Virus record (IMG/VR): IMGVR_UViG_3300028284_000023
Span: 1 to 29,234 of that record
DNA length: 29,234 nt
Source of the DNA: a virus
Reading direction: 5' to 3' (one strand)
This document shows, one piece after another, positions 2,063 to 29,234 of the stretch. The notes beneath the pieces were generated by a model. It was not told the DNA's origin. It searched no databases and saw only the letters and a list, made by a program, of their open reading frames with translations. Numbering within the stretch: position 1 is the stretch's first letter; each line of letters starts with the position of its first letter. The position numbers were made by a program, and so were the translations under genes.

Positions 2063-3880
2063 ATGAACGATTTAAGAATAGTAAATTTAAGTACTTACAC
2101 AACTCCAGAAATTGTTGAGAAATCAAACAAAGAATGGGTTAGTTATGGTTCTGATAACAATTATTTTAAGTATTTAATTGACCGCTATAATGGTAGTCCA
2201 ACAAATAACGCTATTATTAACGGTATTAGTGAAATGATTTACGGACGTGGACTAGATGCATTAAACTCAAATAAGAAGCCAGAGCAGTACGCTAAAATGA
2301 TTTCTTTGTTTCATAAAGATATGGTTCGTAAATTATGCTATGACCTTAAACTTATGGGTCAGTGCGCTATGCAAGTCATTTACTCTAAGGATAAAAAAAC
2401 TATTGCACAAGTTGAGCATATACCTGTTGAAAACTTAAGAGCAGAAAAATGTAATGACAAAGGCGAGATAGAAGCTTATTATTATGCTGATGATTGGAAG
2501 AAGGTTAAAAATGTAGGTCACACAACTAGAATACCATCTTTTGGAAGTAGTTCTGAAAACATAGAGATTATTTATGTAAAGCCGTATCGTGCTGGTTATA
2601 AGTACTATAGCAGTCCAGATTATGCTGGAGGACTTCAATATGCTGAGCTCGAACAGGAAATCTCGAACTATCATTTAAACAATATCCTGAACGGATTAGC
2701 TCCTTCAATGTTAATAAATTTTAACAATGGTACACCAAACGCTGAAGAACGCCAAGCCCTAGAAAACCGTATATATTCTAAATTTTCTGGGAGTAGCAAT
2801 GCTGGTAAGTTCATTTTAGCATTTAATGACAATCCAGAAAGTGCAGCAACGATTGAGCCAATACAATTAAGTGAAGCACATCAACAATATCAATTTTTAA
2901 GTGATGAAAGTTCTAAAAAAGTAATGGTTGCTCATAGGGTTGTTAGTCCTATGCTTTTAGGTATTAAAGATAATAGCGGACTTGGTAATAATGCACAAGA
3001 ATTAATTACAGCTAGCACCTTAATGGATAACACCGTTATAAGACCATTTCAGATGCTCTTAATAGATGCTTTTGATTCTATACTAGCATTTAATCAAATG
3101 AGCCTTAAACTGTACTTTAAAACGCTTCAACCGTTAGAATTTACAGACTTAGAAAACGTTGAGGACGCTGAAACAAGAGAAGAAGAAACAGGGGTTAAAC
3201 TTAGCCAAGAATTACCAGATGAATTGGGAAGTGATATTGCTGATGAATTAATTCACTTAGGAGAGAGCGAAGAAGAACTACTAGCTGAATATGATTTAGT
3301 AGATGAAAGCGAAGTTGATTATGAACTAAATGACGAACTAGATGAGGTTATAACAGACTTAAACACTGAACCAGAAGAAGATGAAACAACGTTGTCTAAA
3401 ATATGGAATTTTGTAAGTACTGGAACGGCTAAACCAAACGCAAAAAGTACACAAGATGGCAAATCAAAACAAGATAGTCAAAAAGGTGTACAGTTCTTAG
3501 TACGTTATTCTTATGCACCTGAAAAAGCTGGGTCAAACAGCAGACAGTTTTGTTCTAAAATGATAGGAGCTAAAAAAGTTTACCGCAAAGAGGATATTGT
3601 ATCAATGGGCAAAAAGTCTGTAAACGCTGGTTTTGGCAAAGGTGGCTCAGATACATACTCTATATGGTTATATAAAGGCGGTGCTAGATGCAATCATAAG
3701 TGGTTCAGAAAGACCTATCAAATTAAAGAAGGTGAAAAAAGCCAAATAACAAGCGGTCAAGCTAAAAGTAAAGGTTTTAAAATGCCTAAGAACGCACAGA
3801 AAGTACCAGTAGCACCAAAGGATATGAAGTATAAAGGTTATACTGCTGAATATTGGAACAAAATGAAATTCAAAAACTAA
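2063..3880 (+). CDS. Portal protein fused to a C-terminal MuF/SPP1-gp7-like minor head domain
   Basis: 605 aa. The N-terminal ~370 aa is portal-like by size and context. An acidic linker (EDAETREEE...EPEEDE) follows, then a basic C-terminus with SRQFC...GGARCNHKW, which resembles the Cys/His motif of Phage_Mu_F. Confidence 0.6.
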   Translation: MNDLRIVNLSTYTTPEIVEKSNKEWVSYGSDNNYFKYLIDRYNGSPTNNAIINGISEMIYGRGLDALNSNKKPEQYAKMISLFHKDMVRKLCYDLKLMGQCAMQVIYSKDKKTIAQVEHIPVENLRAEKCNDKGEIEAYYYADDWKKVKNVGHTTRIPSFGSSSENIEIIYVKPYRAGYKYYSSPDYAGGLQYAELEQEISNYHLNNILNGLAPSMLINFNNGTPNAEERQALENRIYSKFSGSSNAGKFILAFNDNPESAATIEPIQLSEAHQQYQFLSDESSKKVMVAHRVVSPMLLGIKDNSGLGNNAQELITASTLMDNTVIRPFQMLLIDAFDSILAFNQMSLKLYFKTLQPLEFTDLENVEDAETREEETGVKLSQELPDELGSDIADELIHLGESEEELLAEYDLVDESEVDYELNDELDEVITDLNTEPEEDETTLSKIWNFVSTGTAKPNAKSTQDGKSKQDSQKGVQFLVRYSYAPEKAGSNSRQFCSKMIGAKKVYRKEDIVSMGKKSVNAGFGKGGSDTYSIWLYKGGARCNHKWFRKTYQIKEGEKSQITSGQAKSKGFKMPKNAQKVPVAPKDMKYKGYTAEYWNKMKFKN

Positions 3881-13476: not shown

Positions 13477-13992
13477 ATGACAGCAAAAACATTAAGTAGA
13501 TTAGGAATAGAAGTATGGAAGGACATACCTACATTTAAAAGTTATGAAGTTAGTAATTTAGGGAATGTTAGAAGTTTAAAGTTTAACAAGTTTAAAGTTT
13601 TAAAAAAAAGCATAAATAAAAGAGGTAGGTATAGAGTTAATCTTTGTGAAAATGGAAGAAAATTTACAAATTGTAAAATAAGTCAATTATCTGCAATGGC
13701 TTTTTTAAATCATAAACCTTGTGGACATAAAATAGTTGTTGACCACATAAACAACGACAAAGAAAATGATAAGTTATATAATTTACAATTAATTTCAAAC
13801 AGAGAAAACACTGTAAAAGACACAAAGCGAGGTTCGTCAAAATACGTGGGAGTTTCTTGGCATAAAAATCAAAGTAAGTGGAGAACCAATATATACATAA
13901 ATGGTAAAATAAAACATCTCGGATATTTCACAGACGAAAAAGAAGCAGCACAAGCATATCAAAACGAATTAAATAAAATAAAAACAAAATGA
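13477..13992 (+). CDS. HNH homing endonuclease (NUMOD4 + HNH_3 + AP2 DNA-binding domain)
   Basis: EVWKDIPTFKSYEVSNLGNVRS (NUMOD4), VVDHINNDKENDKLYNLQLISNRENT (HNH) and YVGVSWHKNQSKWRTNIYINGKIKHLGYFTDEKEAAQAY (AP2). Confidence 0.75.
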   Translation: MTAKTLSRLGIEVWKDIPTFKSYEVSNLGNVRSLKFNKFKVLKKSINKRGRYRVNLCENGRKFTNCKISQLSAMAFLNHKPCGHKIVVDHINNDKENDKLYNLQLISNRENTVKDTKRGSSKYVGVSWHKNQSKWRTNIYINGKIKHLGYFTDEKEAAQAYQNELNKIKTK

Positions 13993-14462
13993 GTAATTTT
14001 AACAGAAACGAAGTAACAGCATATAACTTAGGTTATAGAGTAAAAGAGAACGGTCAATTAATAGGTTTAAAGGGTAAACCAATAGGATGTGTGTCTAATG
14101 GTTATTATAAGATTAAAATAAGAAATAATGGCGGTTGGATAAACTGCTTAACCCACAGGCTTCAAGCATATCAAAAATACGGAAATGATATATATAAAAC
14201 TGGGATTGTATGCAGACACTTGAACGGCAACAGCTTAGACAATTCTAGGGATAACATAGCAATAGGCACTCAATCTGATAATATGATGGATATGAAGCCA
14301 GAAGTAAGAAAAGCAAAGGGTAGATATGCTTCTTCTTTTGCACAAATACACGACCACGACAAAATAATATTATTTTACAAACAGAGAAAATCATATAAAA
14401 AAACAATGGAAAAATTTAACATTTCAAGCAAAGGAACGTTACATTACATATTAAATAAATAA
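13989..14462 (+). CDS. Second HNH endonuclease (HNH_3-like) with a C-terminal HTH
   Basis: THRLQAYQKYG...VCRHLNGNSLDNSRDNIAIGTQSDN. It has an ATGA overlap with the preceding HNH gene. Confidence 0.6.
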   Translation: MSNFNRNEVTAYNLGYRVKENGQLIGLKGKPIGCVSNGYYKIKIRNNGGWINCLTHRLQAYQKYGNDIYKTGIVCRHLNGNSLDNSRDNIAIGTQSDNMMDMKPEVRKAKGRYASSFAQIHDHDKIILFYKQRKSYKKTMEKFNISSKGTLHYILNK

Positions 14463-15428: not shown

Positions 15429-15950
15429 ATGAGATTAGATATATTAAAAAAAGCAGTAAGCGAAAAATTTGAAGTTGATATTTCAATAAAATCAAGAAAA
15501 AGAAAATATGTATATGCTAGAAAGGTATTCTGTAAACTCGCAAGAGAAACAGGAGCAACTTTTAAAGCAATAGGGAAAGAGATAGGCAACCAGCACGACC
15601 TTGTATTATTCCACTGCAATACAATAGACGTCATAGAATATAAAGATAAAGACAAGCACGATGAACTGATAGACGAGCTGGGGTTAGTGCTATGCAAACC
15701 TTTTGGAAATATAGAAAAAGCCAAAATAAAAAAAGAAATACAACAAACAACCAACAACGAAACACTAAAGCGTATTAAGAGCGTTACAGACGTTATAAGC
15801 GAATGGGATATAGAAACACTACAAGAGTTTAAACAAACACGCCTAGACCCCTTTAACACATTAATAAAGACTAGAGTAAAGCGTAAGACAATACCAGAAA
15901 TAAAAGGTGCTACACTAAACAAGAAAGTAAAAAACCCTGTATTGTGCTAG
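15429..15950 (+). CDS. DnaA-domain-IV-like HTH DNA-binding protein
   Basis: KRKYVYARKVFCKLARETGATFKAIGKEIGNQHDLVLFHCNTI parallels the DnaA C-terminal DNA-binding helix pattern. Confidence 0.4.
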   Translation: MRLDILKKAVSEKFEVDISIKSRKRKYVYARKVFCKLARETGATFKAIGKEIGNQHDLVLFHCNTIDVIEYKDKDKHDELIDELGLVLCKPFGNIEKAKIKKEIQQTTNNETLKRIKSVTDVISEWDIETLQEFKQTRLDPFNTLIKTRVKRKTIPEIKGATLNKKVKNPVLC

Positions 15951-15984: not shown

Positions 15985-16551
15985 ATGGAATTAGTAAAAA
16001 TAAGTAAAGTAAAACCAAACGAGAATAACCCTCGTTTTATTAAAGACTACAAATTTAAGAAACTGGTAAATTCAATTAAAGAGTTCCCAGAAATGTTAAA
16101 GCTACGACCGATTGTAGTTAACGCTGATATGGTTGTACTAGGTGGGAATATGCGACTTAGAGCTTGTAAAGATGCTGGACTAAGAGAAGTTTGGGTACTG
16201 AAAGCAGACGAACTAACAGAAGCACAACAAAGAGAATTCATAGTAAAAGATAATATAGGATTTGGAGAGTGGGATTGGGATATACTGGCTAATGAGTGGA
16301 ATAATGTACAAATGGAAGAATGGGGTTTAGACGTTTGGACACCAGAAGAAGATGTAGATTATTCGATATTAGATGATGATGATTTATCAGTTGATTTAGA
16401 AGATATGAAGAGTGGTGTAAAAAAAGCTATACAAATCCCTTTTGAATTAGAACATTATGAACAGGCTTTTGAGTTAGTTAAATATTGGAGAGAAAAAGGA
16501 GCTTATGTAGGTATGATGCTTATTGAAAAATTAAAACAGGAAAAAAAATGA
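15985..16551 (+). CDS. ParB-like nuclease (ParB/Srx N-terminal) domain protein
   Basis: KPNENNPRFI...LRPIVVNADMVVLGGNMRLRACKDAG is the ParB N-terminal box. The C-terminal half is acidic. Confidence 0.65.
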   Translation: MELVKISKVKPNENNPRFIKDYKFKKLVNSIKEFPEMLKLRPIVVNADMVVLGGNMRLRACKDAGLREVWVLKADELTEAQQREFIVKDNIGFGEWDWDILANEWNNVQMEEWGLDVWTPEEDVDYSILDDDDLSVDLEDMKSGVKKAIQIPFELEHYEQAFELVKYWREKGAYVGMMLIEKLKQEKK

Positions 16552-17327
16552 AACACATCGAACTTAAACAAATAGAGCATAACACAAAAATTGGAGATGT
16601 ATGCGGACATATTGAGCCTAATATTACAGAAGATACATTATTTTTGCACAACGGAGAACCAATTGGGTTTTATATAAAAGATATATCTAAATATTCACAA
16701 AAAGCGTCTAAATTAGCAGCTCTTGCGAACCAAGAGTTAAGAAGTAAAAAAGTACCTAAAAGCGTAATGAAAAGGTCAAGCGGTTTTACTAATTCAGAAA
16801 ATGAAGTATTACAGTATAGCACAATTATTGGAAGTGTACCACCAAAACCTCATATGCGAAGACCATACCCTACTATAAGTAGTGTGCATAATGTTGATAG
16901 TGCAAAAACTTTTATTAAATGTATGATGTTATTATGTAAAGAGAGTGAAGAAATAATAAAAAAACTAACGCCGAATATATACGAAAACCAAAAAAAACTT
17001 ATAGAAGAAAATGTACCTAAAAAATGGCGTTTCGGTAAATTATTTACGAGTAGTATCTCAAACTATAATATACCTGCACCGTTTCATAGGGATAATGGTA
17101 ATATAAAAGGTTGTGTTAATGTTATTATAGCTAAAAAGAATAATGCCACAGGGGGTAATACTACTGTACCAGATTATGATGCAACTATGGATAGTTGTGA
17201 TAATTCAATGTTAGTTTACCCAGCTTGGCGTAATGTTCACGGAGTTACACCTATTGTACCAACAAATAAAGATGGATATAGAAATAGTTTAGTATTTTAT
17301 CCACTAAAAGCATTTAAAGGATTATGA
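16548..17327 (+). CDS. Putative TET/JBP-family 2OG/Fe(II) dioxygenase (nucleic-acid base hydroxylase)
   Basis: H180-R-D182 (FHRDNGN), distal H231 (VHGVTP) and R245 (YRNSLVFYPLK). The last two strands closely parallel the animal TET pattern H-x-T-T-P ... T-R-I-S-L-V-F-Y-Q-H-K as I recall it. Confidence 0.45.
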   Translation: MKHIELKQIEHNTKIGDVCGHIEPNITEDTLFLHNGEPIGFYIKDISKYSQKASKLAALANQELRSKKVPKSVMKRSSGFTNSENEVLQYSTIIGSVPPKPHMRRPYPTISSVHNVDSAKTFIKCMMLLCKESEEIIKKLTPNIYENQKKLIEENVPKKWRFGKLFTSSISNYNIPAPFHRDNGNIKGCVNVIIAKKNNATGGNTTVPDYDATMDSCDNSMLVYPAWRNVHGVTPIVPTNKDGYRNSLVFYPLKAFKGL

Positions 17328-17680
17328 ACAAAACCGAACAGCATAAAAAAGCGATTATAGAAGCCCTAGAAATGTCTTTAGGTGTTGTTACGACAGCCTG
17401 TAAAAAAGTTGGTGTAGGCAGAACTACATTTTACGGTTGGTTGAAAGATGATGATATATTTGCACAAGAAGTAGAGGATATACAAAATATAGCACTGGAT
17501 TTTGTTGAGAGTAAATTGTTTGAAAACATAAAGCAAGGTAAAACTGCTGAAATGATTTTTTATCTAAAAAGTAAAGGCAAGAAACGAGGTTATGTAGAAA
17601 GGCAAGAAATAACAGGAGCTGATGGAATGCCTACTAATTTTCAAATTGAAATAATTGACAATATCAAAGATAAAGACTAA
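17324..17680 (+). CDS. terS: Terminase small subunit (HTH)
   Basis: 118 aa with the HTH ACKKVGVGRTTFYGWLK, immediately upstream of and overlapping TerL. Confidence 0.55.
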   Translation: MNKTEQHKKAIIEALEMSLGVVTTACKKVGVGRTTFYGWLKDDDIFAQEVEDIQNIALDFVESKLFENIKQGKTAEMIFYLKSKGKKRGYVERQEITGADGMPTNFQIEIIDNIKDKD

Positions 17681-18818
17681 TATTGTTTATAGACACTTAT
17701 TAAAGAGCCGAAACAAAATAATAGTTGAGCAAGGTGGAACGAGGTCTGGAAAGACTTTTAATATATTGCTTTACATTATATTTGAATATTGCTTAAAGAA
17801 TAATAACAAGACTATAACAATAGCTCGTAAAACGTTCCCCAGCGTTAGAGCGACTGTAATGCGTGACTTCATAGATATATTAAAACAGTATGGTCTATAT
17901 AGAGAGGAACACCACAATAAGTCATCAAGTGAATACAAGCTAAACAACAACCTTGTTGAATTTATAAGCGTTGACCAGCCACAAAAGATAAGAGGGCGTA
18001 AAAGGGATATTCTTTTTATTAACGAAGCGAATGAGTTAGATTTTGAGGATTGGCAACAATTAGTGTTTAGAACCACAGAAAAAATAATAATCGATTACAA
18101 TCCCTCTGATGAATACCATTGGATATATGACAAGGTATTAAATAGAGATGATGTAGATTTTTACAAAACAACTTATTTAGATAATCCTTTTTTAGATAAA
18201 TCCATAATAAAAGAAATAGAACGACTAAAACAAACAGACGAACAGTATTGGCAAATTTACGGTCTAGGGGAAAAAGGTATAAGTAAAGCGACTATATTTA
18301 ACTATTATGAAGTCCCACATATACCACACGATGCAGAGCTTGTTAGTTATGGTGCAGATGCTGGATATACGAATGACCCAAGCACATTGGTTAGTGTTTA
18401 CAAGAAAGACCATAACCTATACATCAAAGAACATCTATATAGGACAATGATGACTACAAAAGATTTAAGCGACCATTTCAAAAGAGAAAGTGTTGGACGT
18501 AATACAATATATTTTGATGCAGCAGAACCACGATTAATAGACGAGCTTAGACGAATGGGTCATAACATACAACCATCATTAAAAGGTAGAGATAGTGTAA
18601 ACGCTGGTATTGATTTGTTAAAGCGTTTTAAAATACATTTAGTTACTTCGGATGATAACCTTATAATGGAGTTCAGAAATTATAAATGGGTTACTGATAA
18701 ATCTGGGAAGCTAACAAACACGCCAGTTGATAAAAATAATCATTTAATAGATGCTGTTCGTTATGCAACTTACTCAATAATGAGCAGACCAAACTTCGGT
18801 AAATATGCAGTGTCTTAA
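17655..18818 (+). CDS. terL: Terminase large subunit (PBSX/Terminase_3-like)
   Basis: Walker A GGTRSGKTF. Its length and the C-terminal nuclease-like region (DKNNHLIDAVRYA) fit TerL. The codon at 17655 is TTG and there is no upstream in-frame ATG, so the exact start is uncertain. Confidence 0.85.
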   Translation: MTISKIKTNIVYRHLLKSRNKIIVEQGGTRSGKTFNILLYIIFEYCLKNNNKTITIARKTFPSVRATVMRDFIDILKQYGLYREEHHNKSSSEYKLNNNLVEFISVDQPQKIRGRKRDILFINEANELDFEDWQQLVFRTTEKIIIDYNPSDEYHWIYDKVLNRDDVDFYKTTYLDNPFLDKSIIKEIERLKQTDEQYWQIYGLGEKGISKATIFNYYEVPHIPHDAELVSYGADAGYTNDPSTLVSVYKKDHNLYIKEHLYRTMMTTKDLSDHFKRESVGRNTIYFDAAEPRLIDELRRMGHNIQPSLKGRDSVNAGIDLLKRFKIHLVTSDDNLIMEFRNYKWVTDKSGKLTNTPVDKNNHLIDAVRYATYSIMSRPNFGKYAVS

Positions 18819-19276: not shown

Positions 19277-19297
19277 TAAAATAAACCATCAATATAG

Positions 19298-19324
19298 CCC
19301 TTACAGAAATGTAGGGGTTTTTTT
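19298..19324 (+). terminator. Rho-independent terminator
   Basis: 8-bp stem cccttaca/tgtagggg (one G-U pair), GAAA tetraloop, then T7. Confidence 0.8.
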
Positions 19325-28548: not shown

Positions 28549-29166
28549 ATGAAATCAAACAATGTGATTGAAAAAATCAAAGACGTTCTAAACCTTAACG
28601 AGGAAGTTAAGCTAGAACAAGCTAAACTAGATAACGGCACAGTCATCGAAGCTGATTCGTTTGAAAGTGGCGTGGAAGTGTTTATCGTTACAGAAGATGA
28701 AAAAGTAGCTTTGCCTGTTGGTGACTACATTCTTGAAGATGGTAAAATATTAGTAGTAGCAGAAGAAGGCTTAATTGCTGAAATTAAAGATGCTGAAGCC
28801 GAAGAAGAAACCGAAGAAGAAGAAGTTGAGGTTGAAGCAGCGGAAGAAGAAGAAGAATCTTTAGGCTATGCTACTAAAGAAGAACTAGCAGAAGTTAAAG
28901 ATATGATTGAAGAAATCAAAGCAATGCTAGAACCAAAAGAAGATTTGAGCGAGGATTTAGGAAACCTTTTAACAGAAGAATTAGCTAAACACGAAAAAGT
29001 TGAGTTAAACGAAGTGCCTGTTGAAGTACAAGCTGAACTAAACGAGCCAAGTGCCGAGCCTATCGTATCAAATCCAGAAGTAAACAAAGCTATATCAAAA
29101 TTTAGTGTTTCTAAAAACAGAAAAAGCACAACTATTGATAGAGTAATGTCAAGACTAAATAATTAA
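28549..29166 (+). CDS. Scaffolding protein
   Basis: 205 aa, helical and very Glu-rich (EAEEETEEEEVEVEAAEEEEES), immediately upstream of the capsid gene across the circular junction. Confidence 0.6.
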   Translation: MKSNNVIEKIKDVLNLNEEVKLEQAKLDNGTVIEADSFESGVEVFIVTEDEKVALPVGDYILEDGKILVVAEEGLIAEIKDAEAEEETEEEEVEVEAAEEEEESLGYATKEELAEVKDMIEEIKAMLEPKEDLSEDLGNLLTEELAKHEKVELNEVPVEVQAELNEPSAEPIVSNPEVNKAISKFSVSKNRKSTTIDRVMSRLNN

Positions 29167-29234
29167 TAACAACTAAAACTAAATAAAATGAGTGTATCAT
29201 TAACAACAACTTATGCTGGAGAATTTAGTGGCAA
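29108..29234. repeat. Terminal overlap copy B. It is identical to 1-127, and the capsid gene restarts at 29188.
   Basis: Direct comparison with the first 127 bases. Confidence 0.95.

Follow-up and report, generated by a model that had tools for sequence, protein, structure and literature searches.

A tail-less TET/JBP-family dioxygenase encoded between a ParB-like protein and the terminase genes of a small phage

Phage thymine dioxygenases (5mYOXs) fall into two subclasses, one stand-alone and one ParB-dependent (O'Toole et al., PNAS 2026, PMC13229309; preprint 2025). In the ParB-dependent subclass, the adjacent ParB shares with chromosome-segregation ParB a nucleotide-binding domain (NBD) and a C-terminal domain (CTD) but has no obvious DNA-binding domain, and the ParB-associated enzymes turn thymine (T) into 5-hydroxymethyluracil (5hmU) in vivo as well as in vitro. 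In E. coli, 5mYOX176 produces ~1% 5hmU alone and ~35% together with ParB176, with ParB being required specifically on canonical double-stranded DNA. A C-terminal extension is reported only from ParB-dependent 5mYOXs, and truncation of 5mYOX176 at C280 nearly abolishes its activity. A glutamine amidotransferase (GATase), a P-loop kinase, and an amino-acid:DNA transferase tie this subclass to thymidine hypermodification (O'Toole et al.). Here, we analyze a virus sequence of 29,234 nucleotides (IMG/VR record IMGVR_UViG_3300028284_000023, positions 1 to 29,234; the whole stretch is called the window below), in which a TET/JBP-type dioxygenase of 259 amino acids (aa) is encoded between a ParB-like protein and the small and large terminase subunits (TerS and TerL). 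A TET gene that lies between ParB and terminase and has no methyltransferase is the expected picture for the class described in 2025–26 and not a new kind of system; the departures from the characterized enzymes are the missing C-terminal tail and the missing tailoring genes. On balance, we favor the view that the enzyme is a ParB-assisted, post-replicative thymine dioxygenase, which would leave 5hmU in the phage DNA as a protective mark and would be made with the packaging genes.

The window locus resembles Clade C1 (5mYOX176/ParB176, 5mYOX185, and 5mYOX177) in several respects. A TET/JBP gene sits next to an NBD-plus-CTD ParB without a DNA-binding domain, no C5-cytosine methyltransferase (C5-MT) is present, linkage to terminase is frequent, and relatives of the window carry the GATase, the kinase, and the amino-acid:DNA transferase. 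The best structural homologs are TET2 for the enzyme and MxParB and CcParB for the partner, and the spacing of key residues is identical to that in ParB176. However, the window clade, which includes marine phages and Prochlorococcus siphophages, ends at the equivalent of C280 of 5mYOX176 and thus has no tail, and the window genome is devoid of any tailoring enzyme; this comparison uses the described features of Clade C1. Clade C2 (5mYOX89/97, ParB-independent) shares with the window a small phage TET/JBP protein without a C-terminal extension, as well as thymine oxidation, which is predicted for the window enzyme. In contrast, ParB genes do not co-occur with C2 enzymes, which often have glycosyltransferases, methyltransferases, and endonucleases linked to them, whereas ParB is nearly always present in the window clade.

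More distant systems share the fold or the predicted chemistry. Enzymes of Clades A/B have the phage TET/JBP fold and act post-replicatively on DNA, but they come with an adjacent C5-MT and often with glycosyltransferases, and generate 5-hydroxymethylcytosine (5hmC) at GpC (Burke et al. 2021, PMC8256090); the window and its related loci have no C5-MT. An earlier note on the window, made from its letters only (the original prediction), started from the premise that a C5-MT normally accompanies phage TETs. This premise applies to Clades A/B only (PMC8256090), and across phage TET/JBP loci the co-occurrence is 27% for ParB, 19% for terminase, and only 6% for C5-MT (PMC13229309). The trypanosomatid proteins JBP1 and JBP2 belong to the same superfamily and carry out the same reaction that is predicted here, from T to 5hmU. 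They are, however, large multidomain eukaryotic proteins (with a J-binding domain or an SNF2 ATPase) that work without ParB and whose product is glucosylated to base J, whereas the window enzyme consists of a single domain, has a ParB as its putative partner, and comes without a glycosyltransferase. Finally, Aravind's group had earlier described a "ParB-Terminase large subunit locus" (ParB-Tls) with predicted modification of phage DNA during packaging. There, as in the window, a ParB-like gene and then a DNA-modifying enzyme stand directly upstream of the terminase genes, and the order ParB-TET-TerS-TerL matches that locus; ParB-Tls is a comparative-genomics prediction that spans many enzyme types.

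The dioxygenase and the ParB-like protein

Judged by its sequence profile and its modeled fold, the 259-aa product is a TET/JBP-type DNA dioxygenase. Tet_JBP (PF12851) is its sole significant Pfam match (E=3.8e-9; 36.4 bits, just above the curated cutoff of 34.9; residues 112-251). There are 3,764 homologous database proteins at E<=1e-5, with homologs already annotated with PF12851, and an exhaustive search gave 772 clusters at 50% identity. H180 and D182 are located in PAPFHRDNGN, H231 in NVHGVTP, and R245, the predicted 2-oxoglutarate-binding arginine, in GYRNSLVFYPLK. Together with S247, Y251, and L253, these four residues are invariant in an alignment of 115 sequences of 44-96% identity. 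Searches of the Protein Data Bank (PDB) by sequence were weak, with no match for the single sequence and E ~1 only, to TET2 and CMD1, for the profile; a fold search was therefore needed. Using an AlphaFold2 (AF2) model built on the 115-sequence alignment (pLDDT 94.3, pTM 0.91), we found that the top 25 PDB matches in Foldseek are all TET-family structures (CcTet, TET2, NgTET1, and CMD1; E 3e-10 to 2e-7), with a TM-score of up to 0.68, and that FTO and AlkB rank next below. The profile-to-PDB alignment pairs the HxD block and the "HGVTP...YRNS.V.Y" block of the family with "HRD" and "HATTP...TRISLVFYQHK" of TET2. The original prediction had placed the four catalytic residues in this open reading frame (ORF), had compared it with the TET2 motifs, and had assigned the protein to the TET/JBP branch. 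The residues are where it put them and all four are conserved throughout the alignment, the TET2 motifs that it gave are correct, and the profile and structure searches lead to the TET family and not to a dioxygenase family that acts outside nucleic acids.

No NCBIfam model matches the dioxygenase. We considered and rejected the label "queuine tRNA-ribosyltransferase", which is attached to phrog_6059 and to RefSeq homologs, as a propagated mis-annotation, since neither Pfam nor NCBIfam detects a TGT domain. Many actinophage TET/JBP homologs in RefSeq bear this label, as does the protein of Prochlorococcus phage MED4-184 (NC_020847.1, 5980-6765).

The AF2 model also locates the end of the protein, which falls 8 residues past the last strand and leaves no C-terminal extension. 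ParB-linked homologs of the actinophages Tonitrus and Terij have 45-60 extra residues after "...KDC". The window enzyme, the cyanophage proteins (MED4-184), and the close marine relatives all stop at the "...KDC" position, and library homologs with at least 38% identity are likewise tail-less. We file the window clade as a naturally tail-less, ParB-linked form that may work like the ParB-dependent subclass and is a putative member of it.

The ParB-like protein encoded upstream has its parts in the order described for ParB176. It begins with a ParB/Srx-type NBD (residues 1-92), which AF2 models with confidence, followed by a Trp-rich segment (94-118) with two short helices (98-112), an acidic, low-confidence linker (~119-150), and a C-terminal helical domain (~150-188) in which AF2 places helices at 155-187 with low confidence (pLDDT 55-68). 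It has no helix-turn-helix (HTH) DNA-binding domain, and its 188 aa are too few to accommodate the HTH domain of canonical ParB. The Pfam ParB_N match (E=3.9e-5) lies below the curated cutoff, whereas matches to PHROG ParB families reach E=1e-27. In phmmer, residues 2-92 align to MxParB (7bnk) and BsSpo0J (6sdk), and the best Foldseek matches are MxParB (7bnr/7bnk), CcParB (7bm8/6t1f), and Spo0J (6sdk), followed by Noc and KorB. Residues N15, P16, R17, S30, G53-G54-N55-M56-R57, A60, and K88-D89-N90 are invariant. Among them, R17, S30, R57, and N90 correspond to R54, S68, R95, and N127, which make the phosphate and base contacts in MxParB. The spacing of N15, R17, S30, and R57 (2, 13, and 27) is that of N14, R16, S29, and R56, the residues mutated in ParB176, while the spacing in MxParB is off by one residue. 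Evidence from the model and from this analogy points to a CTPase-fold protein with NBD and CTD and without a DNA-binding domain, similar to the ParB176 activator. The original prediction had listed the protein only among the neighbors, as a "nuclease-domain protein", whereas our results favor a functional partner of the dioxygenase. The ATGA overlaps by which the same prediction had joined the dioxygenase gene to ParB upstream and to TerS downstream are both present in the sequence (Table 1), and the first of them implies translational coupling of ParB and TET.

Table 1 Features of the ParB-TET-terminase region in the window
Feature	Position	Strand	Evidence and remarks
173-aa protein, DnaA C-terminal-type HTH	15429..15950	+	Pfam Bac_DnaA_C E=1.8e-8
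ParB-like protein, 188 aa	15985..16551	+	Pfam ParB_N, PHROGs, phmmer, AF2, Foldseek; predicted activator/partner of the dioxygenase
ATGA overlap, ParB stop/TET start	16548..16551	+	Read from the sequence
TET/JBP-family Fe(II)/2-oxoglutarate dioxygenase (5mYOX), 259 aa, ATG start	16548..17327	+	
H180-R181-D182 codons (HxD of the Fe(II)-binding facial triad)	17085..17093	+	Invariant; aligns to TET2 HRD
H231 codon (distal Fe(II)-binding His)	17238..17240	+	Invariant; aligns to the His of TET2 "HATTP"
Last beta-strand, R245-N-S247-L-V-F-Y251-P-L253	17280..17306	+	Aligns to TET2 "TRISLVFYQHK"
ATGA overlap, TET stop/TerS start	17324..17327	+	Read from the sequence
TerS, 118 aa, HTH	17324..17680	+	PHROG terminase-small families, Pfam HTH; position conserved in relatives
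TerL	17655..18818	+	Pfam Terminase_3 E=3.9e-25, Terminase_3C E=2.4e-20

TerS forms the downstream edge of the modification slot. The start of TerL is ambiguous (17655-17723): its longest ORF opens at a TTG inside TerS, homology to the TerL of a cultured Flavobacterium phage begins at residue 24 of this TTG-started ORF (tblastn), and one public gene call for the same phage (locus L172) uses a later start that gives 319 aa. The DnaA_C-type gene directly upstream of ParB recurs in contigs of this phage but is not conserved among related loci, and it might open the transcription unit that includes ParB and TET.

The two ends of the window are identical over 127 bp (bases 1-127 match 29108-29234 exactly), which indicates a closed genome of 29,107 bp, assembled as circular or terminally redundant. 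Its G+C content is 33%, and all 44 chosen ORFs are on the plus strand. Genes identified in it comprise those for structure, lysis, and replication, two for HNH homing endonucleases, and the ParB-TET-TerS-TerL block. We scanned all 44 chosen ORFs and the 10 longest ORFs in alternative frames with Pfam, and the ORFs around the ParB-TET locus plus ten ORFs without a Pfam match with PHROGs. At that sensitivity, no methyltransferase, glycosyltransferase, kinase, amino-acid:DNA transferase, or amidotransferase was detected in the complete genome, and a six-frame scan found zero matches to the FxGxG...PCQ...ENV pattern. On the basis of this motif scan and the alternative-frame Pfam search, we rejected the idea of a methyltransferase concealed in another reading frame or on the minus strand. 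A megablast search with 24 kb against the phage collection gave no near-identical DNA in cultured phages, and the host is possibly a member of the Bacteroidota.

Two other regions of the genome deserve mention. The HNH-family homing-endonuclease genes form an adjacent pair (13477-13992, with NUMOD4, HNH_3, and AP2; 13989-14462, with HNH_3) just upstream of the DUF3310 gene. The portal ORF (2063-3880, 605 aa) matches Pfam Phage_portal only over residues ~86-320 and below the curated cutoff, and continues into a long C-terminal part of ~280 aa that is first acidic and then basic.

Related loci and the variable cassette

We compared 80 metavirome loci retrieved with the TET protein, 80 retrieved with the ParB-like protein, and the contigs of six database proteins. 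The closest cultured relatives of the window TET are found in the Prochlorococcus siphophages MED4-184, P-HS2, and MED4-117 (53% identity). Next come ~100 actinophages (~25% identity), in which the gene occupies the left end of the genome, next to ParB and terminase. ParB is upstream of TET in ~90 of 93 related loci, and in the three exceptions the upstream sequence is shorter than 700 bp. ParB and TET are immediate neighbors in 38 loci, including relatives with 91-97% identity, and the exact pair of a 188-aa ParB and a 259-aa TET was found again on contigs of several independent samples.

Other loci carry inserted genes between ParB and TET, namely an FkbM-type methyltransferase (PF05050, 23 loci), an amino-acid:DNA transferase (PF18724, E=8e-13, 10 loci), a P-loop kinase-like protein (weak AAA matches only, 9 loci), a GATase (PF13522, 7 loci), or a TET-associated glycosyltransferase (TAGT; PF20691, E=1e-10, 6 loci). 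When positions after the pair are included, PF18724 occurs in at least 10 loci, the GATase in at least 7, and the kinase-like protein in 9, and the window genome has none of them. Relatives that bear inserted tailoring genes, TAGT among them, are 66-85% identical to the window TET. The occurrence of the transferase, the kinase, and the amidotransferase beside enzymes of 66-76% identity is the strongest available evidence that the orthologous group makes 5hmU. C5-MT (PF00145) is absent from the 13 related neighborhoods annotated with Pfam. By comparison of gene content, the window genome is a stripped-down form of a variable cassette and not an orphan. The original prediction had reported neither a methyltransferase nor a glycosyltransferase in the 29.1-kb genome and had described the dioxygenase as lacking a partner of either kind. 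All scans agree with this for the window itself; it does not extend to close relatives, which carry FkbM-type and N6/N4-type methyltransferases, TAGT, and thymidine-hypermodification enzymes.

The 23 loci with the FkbM-type methyltransferase (Methyltransf_21, ~230 aa) are that of Prochlorococcus phage MED4-184 (locus L001, 5282-5983) and L004-L009, L014, L015, L021-L023, L025-L028, L036, L039, L046, L048, L052, L069, and L081. O-methyltransferases are among the co-occurring domains listed by O'Toole et al. (PMC13229309), and on this ground one possibility is that the FkbM-type enzyme might O-methylate 5hmU. A MED4-184 protein annotated as "DNA methylase" (213 aa, NC_020847.1, 4641-5282) was examined as a candidate partner methyltransferase and rejected, as it is a ParB_N protein. 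DNA methyltransferases of the N6_N4 type are encoded a few genes away from the ParB-TET block in relatives (L004 3042-4052; L007 7727-8404; L012 12486-13289; L047), and none is encoded in the window genome.

The slot between ParB and TET shows further variation. In three loci (L080 922-1842, L092, and L093), it is filled by a protein of 301-306 aa without a Pfam match, which could be an uncharacterized tailoring enzyme. A gap of ~667-725 nt without a called ORF separates the two genes in L053-L056, L058, L101, L102, L104, L105, and L107. In L101 and L102, the backbone is the nearest to that of the window (90% identity in TerL), but the TET is only 59% and the ParB C-domain 44% identical. An alternative order, ParB-TET-GATase-AADT-AADT-TerS, is seen in L122, L150, L166, and L171, where the TET is of the tailed type (~280-307 aa) and 22-25% identical to that of the window. 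Comparison of these sequences indicates that tailed and tail-less TETs circulate in phages with nearly the same ParB N-domain (81-86% identical).

The ParB-query search showed that the same ParB subfamily also heads loci without TET. In these loci, the slot before TerS is occupied by Mom (PF25680, E=3e-50; sometimes in two tandem copies; L143, L145, L147, L153, L154, L156, L158-L160, L164, L165, and L168-L170), by an ABC-ATPase-GNAT fusion (L144, L149, L151, and L162), by two PAPS-reductase proteins with DUF3440 and a second ParB-like protein (L163), by a formyltransferase (L140), or by TAGT alone (L148). ParBs whose partner is Mom or ABC-GNAT instead of TET share 79-86% identity with the window protein over residues 1-118 but only 7-22% over the C-domain. 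In a set of 97 unique pairs of ParB and TET, identity of the ParB C-domain tracks TET identity with a Spearman rho of 0.66, a value to be read with the caution that the loci are not phylogenetically independent, which overstates its p-value, and that the C-domain lies closer to the enzyme gene, such that linkage could give part of the signal. The corresponding rho for the N-domain is -0.11. A further kind of ParB C-domain accompanies the few tailed TETs of these phages. TerL of the Mom and ABC-GNAT phages is 68-76% identical to that of the window, compared with an average of 48% for TET-bearing phages, which suggests that the enzyme and the ParB C-domain have been swapped within one lineage.

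These comparisons suggest that partner specificity may reside in the ParB C-domain. A constant N-domain with an exchanged C-domain fits the work on ParB176, in which both ParB domains are needed and pairs are cognate-specific (O'Toole et al., PMC13229309). What goes beyond the earlier ParB-terminase concept, as far as sequence comparison tells, is the constant N-domain combined with joint exchange of C-domain and enzyme, and the swap within one lineage. One may tentatively go further and see in the ParB of such loci a modular adaptor rather than an activator dedicated to TET. Its constant N-domain would then serve DNA engagement and timing, its exchangeable C-domain would recruit the DNA-modifying enzyme of the neighboring gene (TET/JBP, Mom, an ABC-GNAT acyltransferase, or others), tail-less TETs would use a ParB interface different from that of 5mYOX176, and the bare pair would install 5hmU at specific sequence contexts as the final protective mark on DNA about to be packaged. 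We regard this more elaborate scheme as possible, though clearly short of probable.

Proposed mechanism and alternatives

In the mechanism that we favor, ParB-assisted thymine oxidation, the dioxygenase would oxidize thymine at its C5-methyl group in the phage's own double-stranded DNA after replication and thereby yield 5hmU, thymine being the predicted main substrate. The original prediction had offered three readings, a JBP-like thymine hydroxylase, a TET acting on host-methylated cytosines, or an enzyme with a different substrate entirely, and the first is the best supported of the three. The coupled upstream ParB, with its nucleotide-binding N-domain and a partner-specific C-domain, would activate the dioxygenase or hold it on duplex DNA, like ParB176 with 5mYOX176, a dependence that we infer from the coupling of the two genes. 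The oxidized base (5hmU, possibly with some 5-formyluracil or 5-carboxyuracil) would be the end product. Because the genome encodes no kinase, amino-acid:DNA transferase, glycosyltransferase, or methyltransferase, 5hmU is probably not an intermediate. Given that it directly precedes TerS and TerL, the pair is probably made late, and its likely role would be to label progeny genomes as protection from host restriction or other defenses aimed at DNA. The original prediction had likewise expected expression at packaging time, a reasonable reading of the gene order that agrees with the ParB-Tls idea.

Several points weigh against this mechanism. The window clade has no C-terminal extension, which 5mYOX176 needs, and ParB dependence may therefore differ or the enzyme may act alone. 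Q52 and E93, the hydrolysis residues of MxParB, are both Asn in the window protein (N15 and N55), which makes its CTPase cycle uncertain. The cautions given above for the correlation between the ParB C-domain and TET belong here as well. In a scan of 14.6-19.4 kb for promoters and terminators, matches did not rise above those in shuffled controls, and the plus strand held a single terminator-like site, at 19296-19319; the presumed timing of expression is thus based on gene order. In addition, the characterized phage enzymes 5mYOX97 and 5mYOX176 oxidize 5-methylcytosine (5mC) and T comparably in vitro, and for several ParB-associated pairs, little 5hmU or none was formed in E. coli (O'Toole et al.).

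The alternative that survives best, although we consider it unlikely, retains the T-to-5hmU chemistry and lets the enzyme act alone. ParB would be part of the packaging module or a general DNA-loading factor that is dispensable for catalysis, and the tail-less clade would be functionally ParB-independent, like Clade C2. The missing extension speaks for this, as that extension is described as exclusive to ParB-dependent 5mYOXs, and so does the finding that variable genes can separate ParB from TET. Moreover, the same ParB N-domain heads Mom, ABC-GNAT, PAPS-reductase, and TAGT loci without TET, which means that ParB is not TET-specific. However, ParB is retained in nearly all TET loci and is directly coupled to the enzyme through ATGA in the window, and enzymes of Clade C2 have no co-occurring ParB genes (O'Toole et al.). 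A ParB that serves packaging only is also hard to square with a C-domain that changes with the enzyme and co-varies with TET.

Somewhat more doubtful still is a 5mC dioxygenase, which would oxidize host-methylated cytosines in the phage DNA to 5hmC, or a general 5-methylpyrimidine oxidase for which 5mC is physiologically relevant. In fold and active-site motifs, the protein most resembles 5mC-oxidizing TETs, the in vitro activity of 5mYOX97 and 5mYOX176 extends to 5mC, and the host, possibly one of the Bacteroidota, could methylate cytosines. Against this, no C5-MT is found in the genome or in the annotated related loci, orthologs are paired with thymidine-hypermodification enzymes, and the genome is 67% A+T, which makes T by far the more abundant substrate. 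The invariant L253 takes the position of the His in the "YQH" motif of TET2, which contacts the cytosine base in TET2 structures; we treat this as a lead and not as a test.

Finally, it is very improbable that the protein is no DNA-base oxidase in vivo and is instead inactive or directed at RNA, proteins, or small molecules: the queuine tRNA-ribosyltransferase label might hint at a role on RNA, and several ParB-associated 5mYOXs are inactive in E. coli (O'Toole et al.), but the protein has no TGT domain and Tet_JBP as its sole significant Pfam match, the invariance of its catalytic residues throughout a large family speaks for an enzymatic function that has been maintained, the bases of nucleic acids are the targets of all top structural matches, its genomic partners are DNA-modification enzymes, and characterized phage 5mYOXs are inactive on free nucleosides and nucleotides (O'Toole et al.).

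If ParB-assisted thymine oxidation holds, a small (29-kb), abundant, and recurrent lineage of marine phages would carry 5hmU in its DNA, made by two genes without further decoration. Restriction digests, nanopore signal, and possibly library preparation respond to 5hmU, and viromes with a high share of such phages could then be affected. The pair in the window represents the simplest natural form of ParB plus dioxygenase, tail-less as it is, and would be a useful test case for activation by ParB. The exchange of the ParB C-domain along with the enzyme, while the N-domain stays constant, offers a concrete and testable idea of where partner specificity may lie.

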